Positions 455-13,884 of a stretch of 14,677 nt of DNA are shown here, piece after piece. A program made the translations under genes and the position numbers. This DNA is from Octopus sinensis. Its lineage: Eukaryota. The stretch's first letter is position 1. Every line of letters begins with the position of its first letter. The notes beneath the pieces are model-generated. The model saw nothing but the letters and a program-made list of their open reading frames with translations. It did not search any database and had not been told where the DNA came from. The stretch lies in contig NW_021825756.1 of NCBI RefSeq assembly GCF_006345805.1, positions 1 through 14,677 on the forward strand, read 5' to 3'.

Positions 455-2808
455 AAAGAGAGCACGGACATGCAGCCTACAAGAAACCCTCAGAATCTTT
501 CCAGCTTGAACTACCATAAGGCAAAACTGGAAACAAATTGAGAAAAAGAGATCCTCAAACAAAACTGGCCTAAATTCTCTCCTCGCCAGACATCGACGTG
601 AAACTTCAACAATTCATGACTGTAACGCAAGCCATATGCTACAAATGTGTGTCCAGAGAGAAAGGCCACTGTACACAAGAACAAAATCCCCAGAGAGAGG
701 AAAATTTAATGAGACGGCGTACAAAAATTTCAAATCGCCTAAACAAACAGATTGAAAGCAGTGAAAAGTCCCGCCTGAAAATAAAACTGTTGGAAATTGA
801 AAAATGTCTGCAACTCTCCCATGAAAAAAAGGAAAGAGCAGACAAGAAGCCTGGGCTATAGACAACATAAATCTAACCCCAGAGCTTTCTACAGGTATGC
901 CAAAGAAACAACTACGGTGCACTGTAGGATAGGGCCACTCCTTGAAAAGGATGGCACACTCACAGGAAAACCAATGAGGGTAAGTGAAACTGACTGAGCA
1001 ATTCAAGAGTGTTTTCACTCCACCCCTCGGGCATTTCCAAATCACCAATCCAACTGACTTCTTTACCACTTCAGCTATAAAATCAGAGGCGGCGACGATA
1101 AATTACATCGATATAAAGGAAGACGATGTAATAAAGGCCATAGATGAAATGAAAACAGACTCAGCTATTGGCCCCAATGGATTCCCGGCAATCCTCTTAA
1201 AAGTATGTAAGAGAGTCCTAGCAAGACCACTGCAGATCCTCTTTCAGAGCTTCCTTGCAGCTGGCAAACTTCCAAGAAAACTGAAGGAAGGCAAAATATG
1301 CCCTATTCATAAAGGAGGTAGCAGAGCAGAGGCCAAGAACTACAGACCTATCTCTCTCACCTCACACATCAGCAAGGTCATGGAACGAATAGTCAGAAGG
1401 AAACTAATCACCTTCCTTGAAGAAAATGACTTGCTGCCCGACACCCAACATGGTTTCCGACCAGGAAGAAGCTGCTTAACTCAGCTCCTACAACACTATG
1501 ACTGGGTGCTGAAACAACTGCTCAACCACTCAAATGTGGAAGTGATATATCTCAACTTTGCAAAGGCCTTTGATAAAGTCGATCATGGAATGATATGTCA
1601 CAAACTGCGTGATCTTGGCATAGTTGGAAAATTGGGAGAATGACTTCATGACTTTCTGAAGAATAGAAGTCAGGTGGTAGCAGCCAATGGGGCCACTTCC
1701 ATCAACACGCAAATAGTGAGCAGTGTTCCGCAGGGCACTGTTTTGGGACCACTACTGTTCATAATGGCCCTCAGCCACGCAGAGAGCCACGATCACAAGT
1801 TATGCAGATGATACAAAAGTTTCACAGGCAATACAGAACCCTGAGGACACTAAACACCTGCAATGTGAGCTGGACGAAATATACAAGTGGGCTGAAAAGA
1901 ATAGCATGCAGTTCAATGCTGAAAAGTTTCAAGCTTTATACTATCAGCATGCAAAACTGAATGCAATACCCAATGAATACACTGGACCTGGAGGGATTGC
2001 AATCCCAGAGGCACATCAGTGCGTGACCTGGGTATTCACATGAGTGATGACGCGACCTTTCATGTACATGTTGCTAAACTGGCAATGAAATGTAGACGGC
2101 TGGCTGGATGGATTCTTAGAACCTTTAGAACAAGAGAACAAGAAACCATGATGGTCCTCTGGAAGACCTTGTCCTAAGCCACTTGACTATTGCTCTCAGC
2201 TATGGTCACCATCCAGTGTCAAGTTGATCACAGAACTTGAGGCGATCCAACGAAGCTACACGAAGAAGATAGCCTCTGTGCAGCATATGAGCTACTGGGA
2301 AAGACTCAAGAGGTTAAAGCTCTATTCCTGGAGCGTAGGCGAGAAAGATATGCCATATATATATTCTGGAAGATCCTGGAAGGACTTGTCCCACACTTTG
2401 GCATCGAGAGTCACACAAATGCCAGAACCGGACGCCACTGCGAAGTACCAAGGACTCCAAATTGCCATCAAGATGTAGGACAAGAATTGTGATAGCCTGG
2501 GCTTCAGAGGCCCACAGCTCTTCAATATCCTCCCGAAGAACCGGAGGGACCTGCATGTTGTAGATGCGGATGTCTTTAAAGTAGGACTGGATCTCTTCCT
2601 GTCAGGTGTCCCGGATGAACCAAACTTCACGGCAGGAGGTGCAGATGAGGGCAGCTGCATCGAACTCTCTCATGCATCAGATGGCGTTTGCTAAAAAGCA
2701 TCTGTGAGGTAAAATCGTGTAGCAAACCAAATGGCGGTGCCCCAGCATGGCCACAGCTCATGAGCTGAAACTGGAAAAATCAAAATCAAATCAAAATCAA
2801 AATCAAAT
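455..2808 (+). mobile_element. 5'-truncated CR1-group (CR1/L2/Crack-like) LINE, copy 1, with intact 3' tail
   Basis: RT motifs YRPISLTS, QHGFRPGRSC, FAKAFDKVDH, VPQGTVLGPLLF, YADD (1801-1812), YCSQLWSP, YWERLKRLKLY. The 3' end has GGCGGTGCCCCAGCATGGCC, a stem-loop (2754-2767) and an (AAATC/AAAATC)n tail. The 5' boundary is approximate. Confidence 0.9.
460..2707 (+). pseudogene. Disrupted ORF2 (reverse transcriptase) of LINE copy 1
   Basis: Pieces match ORFs 598-861, 797-997, 984-1643 and 2224-2478. TGA at 1641-1643 lies where copy 3 has Trp (GEWIHDFL). YLNFAKAFD has N at the catalytic Asp position. Several frameshifts; ends ...AAASNSLMHQMAFAKKHL* at 2707. Confidence 0.85.
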
Positions 2809-2849: not shown

Positions 2850-3124
2850 CCAGCCTCGTCTGGCACCTGTGTCGGTGGCACATAAAAAACACCATCCGAG
2901 CGTGGCCGTTCGCCAGCCTCGTCTGGCACCTGTGTCGGTGGCACATAAAATCACCCACTACACTCTCGGAGTGGTTGGCGTTAGGAAGGGCATCCAGCCG
3001 TAGAAATACTGCCAGATTTGACTGGGCCTGATGAAGCCTTCTGGCTTCACAGACCCCAGTAGAACCGTCCAACTCATGCTAGCATGGAAAACGGACGCTA
3101 AACGACGATGATGATGATGATGAT
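2850..3124 (+). mobile_element. RTE-type 3' UTR fragment (or derived SINE) with (GAT)n tail
   Basis: Repeat units with 63-bp period (2851, 2914), GGCGTTAGGAAGGGCATCCAGCC motif, CATGCTAGCATG palindrome, (GAT)n tail. Homologous to 4597-4943 and 5145-5710. Confidence 0.8.
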
Positions 3125-3153
3125 AGTGTATAGATATATTATATAGTGTATAT

Positions 3154-3210
<57 letters not shown>
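3125..3210. repeat. Degenerate (TA)n microsatellite
   Basis: Direct inspection. Confidence 0.9.
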
Positions 3211-3219
<9 letters not shown>

Positions 3220-3368
3220 CCACTCTCTTATATTTATTTTGTAAAAATATTATAATATATTATAAAATATTATAATAATCCAGGTTTCTCGGAGCACTAG
3301 GCCACTTGGTGTAGAATAGATATACTATTAAATTAGTATCTAATTCTCTCACCCTTATTAATTAATTA
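3211..3368 (+). repeat. Terminal direct repeat, copy A (158 bp)
   Basis: ATATAGTGACCACTCTC...CCCTTATTAATTAATTA; matches 3743-3905 apart from three indels (8, 2 and 1 nt). Confidence 0.95.
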
Positions 3369-3529
3369 TATTATGCTGCATTTATTTCTAAATGCTGTAT
3401 TTGTTTTCCGTGAAAATTTGGCGCGCTGTTAGTTGGGGCATTGAATTATAACGTCGGATGTAATCAATTGAACCACACGCGTATTTATCGTTATGGTAAA
3501 ATCTGGCGTGTGATTGAGTGGATTTCATC

Positions 3530-3624
3530 CAGATAGTTTTGGCTGAGGAGCTACAAGTGGATTTTTTTGTAAGTAAAATACATTTAATTCATTAATAGCG
3601 AAACAATTGTCCCAAAATAATCTG
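3530..3624 (+). ncRNA. Type I hammerhead ribozyme HHR-1
   Basis: Helix I CAGATAGTTTTGG(3530-3542)/CCAAAATAATCTG(3612-3624); core CTGAGGA 3543-3549; helix II GCTA(3550-3553)/TAGC(3596-3599) plus extension 3556-3563/3586-3593; GAAA 3600-3603; helix III within palindrome ACAATTGT 3603-3610; GUC cleavage triplet 3609-3611. Confidence 0.88.
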
Positions 3625-3742
3625 TAGTTTTGTTATTTTTTATTTGCCCTGTCCGTGTGAGCTAACAATCGTACTGACTTTCATGGAAAAATGTATTTTT
3701 GTGGTTTGAAACCTTTTGGATTAACTGGTGCTAGAGTGAGCC

Positions 3743-3905
3743 ATATAGTGACCACTCTCTTATATTTATTTTGTAAAAATTATAATATATTATAAAATAT
3801 TATAATAATCCAGGTTTCTCGGAGCAATAGAGCACTAGGCCACTTGGTGTAGAATAGATATACTATTAATTAGTATCTAATTCTCTCACCCTTATTAATT
3901 AATTA
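3743..3905 (+). repeat. Terminal direct repeat, copy B (163 bp)
   Basis: Matches 3211-3368; has GGAGCAATAGAGCAC where copy A has GGAGCAC. Confidence 0.95.
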
Positions 3906-4042
3906 ATATATATATATATATATATATAGTGTAATATAATATATATATATAGTGTATATATATATATATATAGTGTATATATAGTGTATATATATATAGT
4001 GTATATATATATATATATATATATATAGTGTATATATATATA

Positions 4043-4088
<46 letters not shown>

Positions 4089-4096
4089 TATATATA
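3906..4096. repeat. (TA)n with recurring TAGTG interruptions
   Basis: Direct inspection. Confidence 0.95.
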
Positions 4097-4463
4097 TCTC
4101 TCTCTATATAAACGGCAGTTTGTCTGTCTGTGTTCTGTGTGTCTGTCAGGTTGTACCCTCACCCTGACCACGGCTTTCAACCGATTCTGATGAAACTTGA
4201 CACACACATAGCCCAATGTCATAATTCAAAACTACGCAGCGAAAATTTTGAAAAGTTCCCCCAGTTCTGAAAAAACTCGATAAATTCGACATGGGGTCGA
4301 GAATCAGAAACACAAACCACAGACTGTCTAGGGGACGCAACTCGACCTTTTTTACTAAAAAAAAAATTACCATCGTTTTTTTCCATCTTTTTGCTATAAC
4401 TCTCTAAAATACGTTATAGTTATTTCCCTTACAAACCCGAGCAACGCCGGGTGATACTGCTAG
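4097..4463 (+). mobile_element. Non-autonomous Helitron (367 bp)
   Basis: 5' TC at 4097 after A, 3' CTAG at 4460-4463 before T, subterminal GC-rich hairpin ACCCGAGCAACGCCGGGT (4435-4452), internal (TGTC)-type microsatellite near the 5' end. Confidence 0.85.
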
Positions 4464-4596: not shown

Positions 4597-4943
4597 ATCA
4601 TCATCATCATCATCATCATTAGCGTCCGTTTTCCATGCTAGCATGGGTTGGACGGTTCAACTGGGGTCTGAGGAGCCCGAAGACTGCATCAGGCCAGTCA
4701 GATCTGGCAGTGTTTCTACAGCTGGATGCCCTTCCTAACGCCAACCACTCCGAGAGTGTAGTGGGTATATTTTATGTGCCACCGACACAGGTGCCAGACG
4801 AGGCTGGCGAACGGCAGACGGCCACGCTCGGATGGTGTTTTTATGTGCCACCGACACAGGTGCCAGATGAGGCTGGCGAACGGCCACGATCGGATGGTGT
4901 TTGTTACGTGCCCACAGCACGGAGGCCAGTCGTTGCGGTACTG
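4597..4943 (-). mobile_element. RTE-type 3' UTR fragment (or derived SINE) with (GAT)n tail
   Basis: (ATC)n from 4597, palindrome 4633-4646, reverse-complement GGAAGGGCATCCAGC motif, repeat units starting near 4771, 4840 and 4904. Confidence 0.8.
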
Positions 4944-5144: not shown

Positions 5145-5710
5145 TTTGGAAATATGCTGTGGTTGAGAAGACGCGGCAAGCCAAATAAGACCATAACCTG
5201 CGGGCTATGAAATGAGACCATAACCTGTGGCCTATGCTAGGAGTGTAACCAGCCCACTTATGCATACCTTTTCCTTCTTTGGTCACTAAACTCTGCTTGC
5301 AAACACCTGTCGCCTTACTGGCACTTGTGCCCGTGCTAGGGTACCAAGTGCACCATCCGAGCGTGATCGTTGCCGGAGCGGCAAACTGGCTCAGTGCCGG
5401 TGGCAAGTAAAAAGGCACCATTCGAGCGTGATCGTTGCAAGCATCGCTTTGCTGGCACCTGTGCCGGTGGCATGTGTAGGGGGATTCAAGCAAGGTCATT
5501 GCCAGTGCCGCCTGACTGGCCCCGTGCTGGTGGCACATAAAAAGCACCCACTACACTCTCGCAATGGTTGGCATTAGGAAGGGCATCCAGCTGTAGAAAC
5601 TCTGCCAGATCAAGATTGGAGCCTGGTGCGGCCGTCTGGTTCGCCAGCCTCAGTCAAAATCGTCCAACCCATGCTAGCATGGAAAGCGGACGTTATATGA
5701 TGATGATGAT
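5145..5710 (+). mobile_element. RTE-clade LINE 3' end: probable ORF terminus, 3' UTR and (GAT)n tail
   Basis: Begins WKYAVVEKTRQAK* (resembles an RTE ORF C-terminus; inference), 27-bp duplication 5183-5236, diverged ~60-bp repeats, GGAAGGGCATCCAGC motif, CCATGCTAGCATGG 5669-5682, (GAT)n. Confidence 0.72.
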
Positions 5711-5935: not shown

Positions 5936-5960
5936 TGTACATATATATTACATATTATAT
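5711..5960. repeat. (TA)n/(TG)n microsatellite
   Basis: Direct inspection. Confidence 0.9.
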
Positions 5961-6338
5961 TCTCTTTTACTTGTTTCAGTCATTTGACTGTGGCCATGCT
6001 GGAGCACCGCCTGTAATCGAGCAACTCGGCCCCGGGACTTATTCTTTTGTAAGCCCAGTACTTATTCTATCGGTCTCTTTTGCCGAACTGCTAAGTAACG
6101 GGGACATAAATACACCAGCATCGGTTGTCAAACAATGCTAGCGGGACAAACACAGACACACAAACATGCATACATATATATACATATATACGACAGGCTT
6201 CTTTCAGTTTCCATCTACCAAATCCACTCACAAGGCTTTGGTCGGCCCAAGGCTATACTAGAAGACACTTGCCCAAGGTGCCACGCAGTGGGACTGAACC
6301 AGGAACCATGTGGTTGGTAAACAAGCTACTTACCACTC
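5961..6338 (-). mobile_element. tRNA-derived CORE-like SINE with LINE-derived 3' tail
   Basis: Minus strand: partial tRNA-like head (GTGGTAAGTAGC), B-box-like GGTTCAGTCCC (6290-6300), CORE-like CCTTGGGCAAGT (6267-6278), central TA/TG microsatellite, tail GGCGGTGCTCCAGCATGGCCACAGTCAAATGACTGAAACAAGTAAAAGAGA. Second copy at 13521-13884. Confidence 0.85.
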
Positions 6339-6341
6339 ATA

Positions 6342-7474: not shown

Positions 7475-7560
7475 TGACCTGAAGAGTGGCTCTATATGTA
7501 AATTGAATTGATTTTACTGTTATCATTTCTTAAATATAGCCCATGAAACATGTGTAGTCA
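7475..7560 (+). ncRNA. Type I hammerhead ribozyme HHR-2
   Basis: Helix I TGAC(7475-7478)/GTCA(7557-7560); core CTGAAGA 7479-7485; helix II GTGG-ct-CTATAT(7486-7497)/ATATAG-c-CCAT(7534-7544); GAAA 7545-7548; helix III AC/GT with ATGT loop; GUA triplet 7554-7556. Confidence 0.75.
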
Positions 7561-7868: not shown

Positions 7869-8209
7869 ATGGTGGATATTGTCTCAAAACAACACTTATT
7901 GAAAGACAATATCCACCCTCTCTTATCGACGAGGGAATTAAACGGCCCAAACAATTGGACACAAAACACTAAGAACTAAAAAACATAGCACCACACCTCA
8001 AACCAAAACATTACTATTTATATCAACAGACAACTCTAGAAACAGTGAGGCATTCAACACTATTGTGCAAACTCTTCCTTTACTAACTAGAGATCCAAAA
8101 ATGAACAACATCCTGAAAACACACAAACTCATCAAATGCAAAAAAACAAGACAAATCGCTAAAGAGATTACTAACAAATGCGAAGCTTTACAAAGCAACC
8201 ACGAAACCA

Positions 8210-8599
8210 ATGGTTGAAACGTGTGGATGCCCAAACCTGCTTGAAGGCTCAGATTTCCTTTTCAAACAAGGACAGAGGTTCAGAATTAAAACTAGTTTCA
8301 CCTGTCCCTCTGAGTACCTAATTTATGTAATAACCTGCTCGGGTTGCAGACACCACTATACTGGACAAACGAGTATGACCTTGAGAAAGAGAACCACTCT
8401 ACATAAGGAGTGAAGTCGTTTCCCGCAATACAAATTCCTCTCAGTGAACATATAGCAAAAATGTGCAGGTAACATCAAACCAAATTTCACAGTCTTCCCT
8501 TTCTACCAGTGCAAAGACACAATCTTTCAACTAGAACATTTAAATAAAGAAACTTTTTTCATTGAAAAATACAAAACATGTCTTAATATGCACTCATAA
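8210..8599 (+). pseudogene. GIY-YIG endonuclease domain of the PLE, disrupted
   Basis: LIY-x3-C-x2-C-x3-YTGQT...R-x3-H...H pattern (CCHH-bearing GIY-YIG typical of PLEs); premature TGA 8411-8413 and frameshifts. Confidence 0.85.
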
Positions 8600-8881
8600 T
8601 CAACTTTTATCTTTTTACATATTTCAATTGATGATTACATCTCTGTACATAAATCCGCTACTAAACAAGGTTTTTGAAACTTGTCTCTGTCTGTACACAT
8701 ATATAATCCTCACCCATTACCGAAAGCTGAACAGTTATCTCCCTTACCCACAACAATAACAATCATAACGACAACCAATTACCTCCTTTTATCTACTTGT
8801 GAATTTACTCGTGAATTTCCTCACACACAACATGGACCAAATTTCTTAAGAAAAAATATATATTCAAATAAGTAAAACATA

Positions 8882-8916
8882 ATATCATGAATAACGATAG
8901 TGAAACCGGTCGATAT
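8882..8916 (+). ncRNA. Minimal type I hammerhead-like motif HHR-3 with variant core (A3-U8)
   Basis: Helix I ATATC(8882-8886)/GATAT(8912-8916); ATGAATA 8887-8893 in place of CTGANGA; helix II AC-gata-GT 8894-8901; GAAA 8902-8905; palindrome ACCGGT 8905-8910; GUC 8909-8911. Sits in the PLE 3' region, where minimal HHRs are expected. Confidence 0.6.
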
Positions 8917-9015
8917 ATCAAAAATTATATTAAAACTATGTAAGTGTGCGTATTTTTAATTTTTTATATACATTACAATCACGTGGAGATAATCGAAATT
9001 CCTCTTTTCTGTTAC

Positions 9016-9019
<4 letters not shown>

Positions 9020-9068
<49 letters not shown>

Positions 9069-9232: not shown

Positions 9233-9611
9233 AATCCTTAAATCTTTAAAAATGTTTCAGCCCGAAAGCTGCGGCCGTCGAATGAGCTACACTCATATGT
9301 AAAACCACCACTGATACATGGCACTGCCCGCATCTGTGTCTCCTGCCGAGAGGTAAGTTCATCTGGAACCCTGACAAGAAGAGATCCAGTTTAGTTTTAA
9401 AGAAACCTACAACCACACCATGCAGGTCCCTTAGGCATTTAGGAAGGATATTGAAGTGCTGTGGTCCCCTGAAACCCAAGCTGTTGCAGTATCTGGTCCT
9501 GTATTTTGATGGTGATGTTGGGATCTTTGGCACCATGCAATGGCGCCCAGTTCTGCTGTTGGTGGTAACTTTCAATGCCAAAATTCAGGACAAGACCCCT
9601 CAGGATTTTCC

Positions 9612-10142: not shown

Positions 10143-11373
10143 TACTCTTTACTCTTTTACTTGTTTCAGGCATCCGGCTGAGGCCATGCTGGGGCACCGC
10201 CCTTGTTGCTACCTTCCTAGTTGCTAAGCCCTTGCTAAGCCCTTGTTGCTAAGTCCAGTTTGCCGTGGCTGGCCACTGATCTAAGAGAGAGTTTGTAGCT
10301 GCTGCCCTTAGGTTACCTTCGTACCTTGCAGTGGGTTCATCTGGGATCCCGGAAAGCAGCTTGTCTAGATGTTTTTTGAAAATGTCCACATCCGCATCAT
10401 GTAGATCTCTTAGTTTTCTTGGCAGTTTGTTGAACAGCTGAGGGCCCCTGAACCCCAGGCTATTACAGTATCTGCTCCTTACCCTGGATGTGGAAGACGG
10501 GACCTTTGGCACCACACAGTGACGTCCTGTACGGGGATTGGAACAGCTCTCAATTCCAAAATTTGGTGCTAGTCCCTCCAGGATTTTCCATATGTATATC
10601 ACTGCATATCTCTCTCGTCTTCGTTCCAAGAGTACAAATTGAGTTCCCTAAGCCTCTCCCAATAGTTCTTTCTTTCATGGTGGAAATCCTCTGGTGAAAT
10701 GTCTTTGGATTGTCTCAAGCTCTGTGGTTAGTTTGACACTATGCGGTGACCACAGTTGGGAGCAGTAGTCCAGGCAGCTTAGGACAAATGTCCTCCATAG
10801 TGTCAACATGGTCTCGCAGTCTTGTCCGGAATGTCCTCAGGATCCAGCCAGTGAGTCGTCTGCACATTGTCACCACCTTCGCGATGTGTGAAGAAAAAAT
10901 GCATCGTCACTCATGTCTATCCCCAGGTCCCGTATTGATTTCGATACTGGGATTTCGATCCCTTCTGGACCAGTATAGTTGTGTTGTAATGTATATGTGT
11001 TTACAGCTTGATTGTAAGGCTTGAAATTTACCAGCATTAAATTGCATGTTGTTGTCTTCAGCCCATTTGTATATGGCATCCAGATCTTGTTGTAAAAGGT
11101 CAGCATCAGCTGGGTTTTTGATTGCCTGTGCTACCTTTGTGTCATCAGCATAGCTAGTGAGGGATGTTGTTTGTGCTACCAAGGGCATGTCAGAGAGCGC
11201 CACCAAAAACAGCAAGGGTCCCAAGACTGTGCCCTGTGGCACCCCGCTTGCTATTGGTGTTTCCCGAGAGGGCTCCATTGGCTGCAACCATCTGGCTTCT
11301 GTCCTTCAGGAAGTCATGTATCCACTCACCTACTTTTCCTGTTATGCCGAGTCTGAGTAATTTGTGACATATC

Positions 11374-13519: not shown

Positions 13520-13520
13520 T

Positions 13521-13628
13521 TTTCAAACCTACTCGTGGCATCTTGGGCAAGTGTCTTCTACTATAGCCCCGGGCCGACCAATGCCTTGTGAGTGGATTTG
13601 GTAGACGGAAACTGAAAGAAGCCTGTCG

Positions 13629-13676
<48 letters not shown>

Positions 13677-13884
13677 TGTGTCTGTGTTTGTCCCCCTAGC
13701 ATTGCTTGACAACCGATGCTGGTGTGTTTACGTCCCCGTCACTTAGCGGTTCGGCAAAAGAGACCGATAGGATAAGTACTGGGCTTACAAAGAATAAGTC
13801 CTGGGGTCGATTTGCTCGACTAAAGGCGGTGCTCCAGCATGGCCGCAGTCAAATGACTGAAGCAAGTAAAAAAGTAAAAGAGTA
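13521..13884 (+). mobile_element. Second copy of the CORE-like SINE, 5'-truncated at the B box
   Basis: TCTTGGGCAAGTGTCTTCTACTATAGCC..., central (TA)n(TG)n, tail GGCGGTGCTCCAGCATGGCCGCAGTCAAATGACTGAAGCAAGTAAAAAAGTAAAAGAGTA; matches the reverse complement of 5961-6300. Confidence 0.88.

Follow-up and report, generated by a model that had tools for sequence, protein, structure and literature searches.

The insertion at positions 3211–3904 (+) of the Octopus sinensis contig analysed here (14.7 kb, taken whole as the window, from a genome assembly of 2.72 Gb) likely belongs to a young non-LTR retrozyme family of known type with unusually clear Penelope insertion footprints. A protein-free 535 bp hammerhead repeat shows Penelope-type ends in (TA)n, which makes the borrowing of a Penelope-like reverse transcriptase (RT)-endonuclease likely. 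In our view the repeat is probably a non-LTR retrozyme mobilized by such an enzyme, with a predicted role for the ribozyme in releasing unit-length RNAs from tandem transcripts, which as circles would act as the template. The published grounds for proposing that Penelope-like elements move animal retrozymes, with circles as the template, are co-occurrence and phylogeny. Here, a Penelope footprint is found on arrays lacking an open reading frame (ORF), together with a strict rule of one end of each of two kinds and one haplotype per insertion. With haplotype markers and an end rule in a young family, it becomes possible to test whether a circle or a multimer is the template and how the inverted arm arose. 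A literature search gave no published description of this family, which repeat databases such as Repbase and Dfam may contain.

The repeat and its hammerhead

The window insertion is single-armed and 5'-truncated, comprises 1.3 units of the 535 bp repeat and stops at a fixed end, termed end A. A 5' partial unit (3211–3367, +; unit positions 379–535), which is a direct repeat of 3743–3904, precedes a full unit without an ORF (3370–3904, +). The full unit differs by three substitutions and a few small indels from the natural copy L016, and its haplotype is common to loci L002, L012, L016, L045, L116 and L128. End A corresponds to unit position 535–538 (window 3904–3907) and a second fixed end, end B, to unit position 408 (window 3772 and also 3240); the 'tail' of about 127–130 nt lies between them at 3773–3904 (+). 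The (TA)n target microsatellite is present on the left (3129–3215) and right (3906–4097) flanks, with no strand assigned. The unit contains no ORF of 80 amino acids, no tRNA head was found in it and there is no LTR; the RT plus GIY-YIG ORF of an autonomous Penelope-like element is likewise absent from it. The sequence-only reading of this DNA had found the hammerhead but overlooked the 535 bp repeat around it.

Searching the genome with the hammerhead core pattern gives 1,658 matches, compared with none for the reversed control; these take in close sister families and represent at least 1,658 copies. A wider clade pattern gives 2,142 genome matches. Of 972 candidates, the best 40 scored are 98–100% identical. 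The sister families, at 70–90% identity, have a closed unit of 500–540 bp whose parts are arranged as in this family, along with indels and compensatory pairs. Tandem arrays reach 17 units. Two or more same-strand hammerheads are present in 26 of 65 insertions and just one in the other 39, the window copy included.

The type I hammerhead motif lies at 3530–3624 (+), as indicated by direct reading, a pair-by-pair check, covariation and an Rfam match. The core nucleotides CUGAGGA, GAAA and GUC, earlier described as being in register, are so both when read directly and pair by pair. CUGAGGA occupies 3543–3549 (+), its position 7 being G, C, A or U among copies, and GAAA occupies 3600–3603; from the hammerhead consensus and the Rfam match, self-cleavage is predicted to follow GUC (3611/3612, +; cut after C3611). 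Helix I (3530–3542/3612–3624) has 12 of 13 positions paired, with one G-U (3536/3618) and one A·A mismatch (3535/3619), and the pair-by-pair check gave the same count as the earlier reading. The extended helix II (3550–3599, +) comprises 4 bp, an internal loop, 8 bp and an apical hairpin. Its base is GCUA/UAGC (3550–3553/3596–3599), followed by a 2 × 2 internal loop and an 8 bp extension (3556–3563/3586–3593) with two G-U pairs; these 4 bp and 8 bp segments had been recognized previously, but the apical hairpin at 3568–3571/3579–3582 had not. In the monomer, helix III consists of A3603-U3610 and C3604-G3609 closing AAUU. As the sequence-only reading also stated, these 2 bp lie within a perfect 8 nt palindrome, ACAAUUGU (3603–3610, +), for which an 8 bp helix III is predicted in a dimer. 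Among 162 full copies, the palindrome is preserved in 149 and the hammerhead core in 154. The CUGANGA/GAAA/UH core, the three helices and the opening at helix I are those of a type I hammerhead.

The fold of the motif differs from chance with a z of −2.75. The full Rfam model Hammerhead_1 (RF00163) matches 3537–3617 with an E value of 2.2e-5, so that the Rfam check suggested earlier does return a match, but one of 28.6 bits, which is below the gathering score of 34 bits because of a 38 nt insertion in loop 2 (the long helix II). A scan of the whole window against Rfam gave microsatellite noise only and did not list the hammerhead at 3530–3624. We are in very little doubt that 3530–3624 is a real hammerhead, and by itself such a ribozyme is ordinary for an invertebrate. 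A second hammerhead-like motif, of another family, is present at 7475–7560 (+), with a 4 bp helix I, the loop AUGU and a z of −0.5.

In an alignment of 17 hammerheads from the family and its sister families, 14 of 29 pairs have changes on both sides, amounting to 65 cells. None of 500 shuffles reaches this number and slid controls give 7–18 cells; 88% of the cells pair. Compensatory change therefore preserves helices I and II. Helix III is invariant in this set, which was chosen for the palindrome. The UAAUC segment of the helix I 3' strand is invariant in all 17 sequences. Folding also predicts a long self-paired rod enclosing the hammerhead (3396–3693, +), part of which covaries across the sister families. 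The 535 bp unit folds far better than its shuffles (z of −6.4), and a consensus fold over 14 sequences has double changes at 21 of 74 pairs in an alignment without a shuffle control. We count the hammerhead covariation, the unit z value, the consensus pairs and the preservation of the core in most full copies as support for selection acting on the RNA of the unit.

Insertion ends and the probable source of the enzyme

The 48 loci examined first gave 35 two-armed and 13 single-armed rows. The two-armed set comprises 44 distinct insertions with both ends in view, namely 32 (with the incomplete L014 and the duplicates L041 and L119 dropped) and a further 12 (with the duplicate L150 dropped). The arms are oriented head to head, their 5' ends are scattered, and the insertion ends give way abruptly to (TA)n. 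In 41 of the 44, one end is A (535–538) and the other is B (408); the remaining three (L112, L140 and L148) combine a regular end with an irregular one, and no two-armed insertion has two ends of the same kind. Single arms stop either at A or at B. The outer fixed ends A and B are about 127 nt apart. End B is located at unit position 407–408 in 38 of 52 cases and is followed by (TA)4 in 45 of 52, while end A is located at unit position 536–538 in 44 of 51 cases and is followed by (TA)4 in 48 of 51.

The inverted 5'-truncated arm, the one-sided tail and the AT-rich target are of the Penelope type. An inverted arm, a one-sided tail and a (TA)n bias are attributed to endonuclease-bearing Penelope-like elements in two reports (10.1101/2021.04.23.441226; PMC3846280). 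A third (PMC11167929) ascribes the Penelope tail to two internal RT starts, with both target strands extended by a predicted dimer; a dimer with two such starts would yield the rule of one end A and one end B. On sequence evidence, the repeat is very probably a non-autonomous element mobilized by Penelope-like machinery.

Comparison with Neptune, Naiad and Poseidon insertions, as described by Craig et al. (2021), Arkhipova et al. (2013) and Frangieh et al. (2024), indicates that they share partial tandems, an inverted 5'-truncated arm, a tail at one end only, an AT-rich or (TA)n target and a hammerhead upstream of the tail. Unlike these elements, the octopus family has no RT or endonuclease and forms whole-unit arrays of up to 17. 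Its tail of 127–130 nt (about 100 nt in the sister families) is three to four times as long as the 30–40 bp published for Penelope-like elements.

As in non-LTR retrozymes, each unit of this short tandem repeat bears a single type I hammerhead. The metazoan non-LTR retrozymes described by Cervera and de la Pena (2020; PMC7229834) and Li et al. (2026; 10.64898/2026.07.22.740005) likewise have an ORF-less tandem unit with one type I hammerhead, low GC and a self-paired fold, range from monomers to long arrays, reach thousands of copies and coexist with Penelope-like elements. The unit of 535 bp is longer than the 170–400 nt of the former paper but within the 51–972 bp of the latter. Helix II here is an extended arm of 50 nt, compared with 4 bp and a short loop in metazoan retrozymes. 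In the sections of the two papers that were consulted, we found no account of retrozymes with inverted arms, a pair of fixed ends and (TA)n targets such as those observed here. Circles and cleavage are predicted for the octopus family.

The anatomy of the insertions also bears on a different origin, in which the units would be pLTR stumps of an undiscovered autonomous Penelope-like element, the arrays would have arisen by later unequal crossing-over and the hammerhead would be a passenger. This model is the one favoured in 10.64898/2026.07.22.740005. Arms longer than one unit can expand, there is some unit heterogeneity in L004 and L120, and hammerhead cleavage is dispensable for insertion in vitro, where hammerhead mutants of an anole element were without effect according to PMC11167929. 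However, no other conserved sequence was found upstream of the unit in the insertions examined for anatomy; end A passes straight into the next unit and the 5' truncation points lie within earlier units. That the sister families keep a closed unit and compensatory pairs implies that the ORF-less unit has long evolved in its own right, under structural selection. We regard an origin from pLTR stumps as improbable, and retain the retrozyme interpretation.

Intact RT-endonuclease frames of 770–850 amino acids exist in the genome, and those of its intact Neptune-like elements that were read by eye also end in (TA)n and have inverted arms and tails of about 35–40 nt. An autonomous element with the hammerhead or tail of the unit was found at none of 133 loci sampled with Neptune-like queries (30 endonuclease, 20 hammerhead, 33 end-A and 50 N-terminal RT loci), and no adjoining RT was present at the 20 hammerhead or the 33 end-A loci. 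Several candidate partners were rejected. The young intact Penelope families carry different ends, L214 has only a 9 nt motif before its end A in common with the unit, which is too little to name it as the partner, and the Penelope remnant in the window itself is from another, older family. This remnant is a decayed Neptune-like 3' end (7880–9020, +) that ends in (TA)n, with a GIY-YIG frame at 8120–8410 (12,183 candidates in the genome) and a degenerate hammerhead-like stretch near 8880–8915. Loci L214, L217, L219, L220 and L231 are young Neptune-like elements with an intact RT-endonuclease frame of 770–810 amino acids, preceded by an overlapping upstream frame; a small hammerhead with a U3-A8 core variant is present in L214/L215. 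Bivalve names occur among the protein relatives of Penelope.

The template of the inserted copies

At 32 diagnostic columns, the mismatch is 2.4% within an arm and 1.1% between opposite arms, compared with 27.4% between insertions. Private variants are common to both arms in L002, L115, L128, L132, L140 and L146, and are present in 17 of 17 units of L120 and L121 together. The low mismatch within insertions and the private variants spanning arms or all units indicate that both arms come from one haplotype, although shared haplotypes could also result from gene conversion or assembly polishing. The 5' ends lie within 8 nt of the cut site in five of 106 cases, compared with 3.4 expected (four incomplete or doubled loci being left out), in a test that is biased by the choice of loci for containing the hammerhead or its 3' flank. 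There is no pile-up of these 106 ends at the cut site, nor one 8–12 nt upstream of the core, and a cut linear monomer is therefore not the usual template. In L004 two haplotypes are combined, and in L120 some variants are confined to part of the units. Such heterogeneity speaks against a purely circular template and is compatible with multimeric templates, with unequal exchange at a later time or with polishing of the assembly. Because a circle and a tandem transcript of homogeneous units would produce identical junctions, the two are indistinguishable here, and either a circle or an uncut homogeneous multimer fits as the template. We lean modestly towards a circular rather than a linear multimeric one.

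In the pathway that we envisage, tandem read-through transcripts would self-cleave after GUC, more efficiently where neighbouring hammerheads swap helix I and form the 8 bp helix III. If cleavage is favoured in the dimer, a lone or circular monomer would be slow to cut. The released monomer, its ends joined by helix I, would be ligated by a host ligase. A dimeric Penelope-like enzyme would then nick both strands of the (TA)n target, and reverse transcription would begin internally in the RNA, with end A used for one strand and end B for the other; such internal starts have an in vitro precedent in the anole element (PMC11167929). Reverse transcription would run 0.1 to 17 times round the unit, after which head-to-head joining of the two cDNAs would follow, at 5' positions set at random. 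A more specific version is that one Penelope-like enzyme dimer per insertion starts reverse transcription on one RNA circle made by the hammerhead, using two sites separated by about 127 nt, with one start per target strand and rolling up to 17 times, and that the inverted arms then give double-stranded RNA with A-to-I editing that hits the hammerhead core. We put this version forward tentatively, judging it to fall just short of an even balance. If it is true, these insertions would directly prove, at the genomic level, both rolling-circle reverse transcription and the mobilization of retrozymes by Penelope elements, in a genome with tens of thousands of hammerheads that have palindromic loops.

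Contigs of four of 20 listed public runs cover every one of 30 bins of the unit and extend across its junction. The four runs represent four studies and two organisms, perhaps differing from the animal of the genome, and are guessed to be RNA, none being recorded as such. A>G is the main change in their contigs, at 16, 21, 9 and 28 places, and 12 listed A>G sites show little or no variation across 153–198 genomic units; one loose contig piece is changed from A to G across the GAAA core. Over L016:1367-1901 the changes in the four runs are clustered A>G (and T>C), partly through the hammerhead core, which suggests editing of both strands. The A>G pattern looks like ADAR editing of inverted arms. 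Among genomic copies, A>G is found at 38 of 154 sites and T>C at 22 of 209 (p = 5e-4), or at 21 and 13 sites, respectively, where there is two-unit support (p = 0.018). Such an excess of A>G could come from edited RNA being copied back into the genome, but the neighbour preference of ADAR is not seen in the genomic A>G sites, six of 21 of which follow G.

The same contigs are relevant to the apical hairpin of helix II, which opens with a motif, GURAGUA (window 3569–3575), that is nearly invariant across the clade and resembles a 5' splice site. If it were one, splicing and self-cleavage would be alternatives. The motif is conserved in 15 of the 17 sequences aligned and varies mainly at R, its pairing partner varies by wobble only, and Penelope hammerheads can overlap an intron. 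However, the contigs of the four runs, which as contigs drop rare forms, have no joint or loose end at GURAGUA, their sole joint being the 535 nt return, and an exonic AG is absent before the motif. A splice site is highly unlikely in our view; GURAGUA pairs in a conserved hairpin, so that a structural or protein-binding role suffices.

Cleavage as a monomer or as a dimer

The weak palindromic helix III is that of dimer-type hammerheads (newt satellite and Penelope type). Dimer-compatible helices III have already been published for metazoan type I and Penelope hammerheads, and this is no new trait. The published type I hammerheads for which dimer cleavage is proposed have, as here, a long helix II and a palindromic helix III/loop 3, and likewise occur as inverted pairs 100–700 bp apart. 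The differences are in helix I (7 + 5 bp here, 4–5 bp in the published examples) and helix III (2 bp plus a tetraloop here, minimal in the published examples). This family also has no extra base between A9 and G10.1 and no adjoining ORF, unlike the published hammerheads.

The sequence-only reading proposed that cleavage may need two copies, and folding predictions bear this out only in part. Monomeric helix III has a predicted pairing of about 1%, and two isolated motifs are predicted to co-fold to a double hammerhead 5.5–5.8 kcal/mol below two monomers. The dimer-compatible helix and tandems of up to 17 units are in keeping with the proposal, but for natural tandem pairs the predicted minimum energy is that of two monomers, with the double form 2.6–7.8 kcal/mol higher. 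A hammerhead-like pattern with a long helix II has at least 38,772 genome matches in many families (control, 1,747). Counted by hand in the first 100 matches listed, loop 3 is a perfect palindrome in 75 (chance 1/16), with eight sequences represented; 13 of the other loops are wobble-compatible and 12 neither. These 100 rows are not independent because families and arrays recur. Among the first 100 clade matches listed, the loop is AAUU in 92 and the non-palindromic AUUU in three, which belong to one sister subfamily. Natural mutants for a test of dimer cleavage are available in the palindromes that covary across many families.

From these models, dimer-enhanced cleavage in cis is plausible; whether cleavage is strongly dimer-dependent we consider evenly poised. 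The same element might instead cleave well as a monomer with the help of contacts between internal loops in helices I and II, in which case the palindrome would be an inherited extra. A helix III of 2 bp plus a tetraloop is called similar to those of invertebrate hammerheads, which cleave as monomers, in PMC7229834, with rates of about 0.8 per min for coral and 0.1 per min for mussel monomers. The long helix I with its invariant UAAUC, the AUUU subfamily and the predicted folding of tandem pairs as monomers point in the same direction. Against efficient monomer cleavage stand the scant predicted pairing of monomeric helix III, the recurrence of palindromic loops in eight sequences, the prevalence of AAUU in the clade and the axolotl 2 bp form, which in the same paper is still much faster as a dimer. 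For the favoured pathway it is a difficulty that eight of nine Xenopus retrozyme dimers were without cleavage according to 10.64898/2026.07.22.740005, as are the unaffected anole mutants and the single same-strand hammerhead in 39 of 65 insertions. Efficient cleavage of the monomer is a real possibility, against which we incline somewhat.

It had further been suggested that cleavage would be sensitive to copy number, which would follow if a partner RNA in trans were required, so that the ribozyme senses copy number or expression level. The predicted stability of the double hammerhead over two monomers would allow this, as would the single hammerhead per strand in most of the 65 insertions, the window's included. 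That gain nevertheless corresponds to a predicted dissociation constant near 1e-4 M, which far exceeds plausible cellular RNA levels; trans pairing of such weakness argues against copy-number sensing. A partner is available in cis from tandem copies, and the single copies are most simply dead-end insertions. The suggestion is thus unsupported, and a required partner in trans is very unlikely.

Another hammerhead family, with a 1,350 bp tandem unit and internal inverted repeats, is present at L105:2961-5648. Elsewhere in the window there are broken LINE reverse-transcriptase fragments (RVT_1) at 480–2700 (+), 9240–9610 (−) and 10250–11360 (−), and short interspersed repeats at 2850–3120, 4600–4940, 5290–5710, 5960–6340 and 13520–13880.
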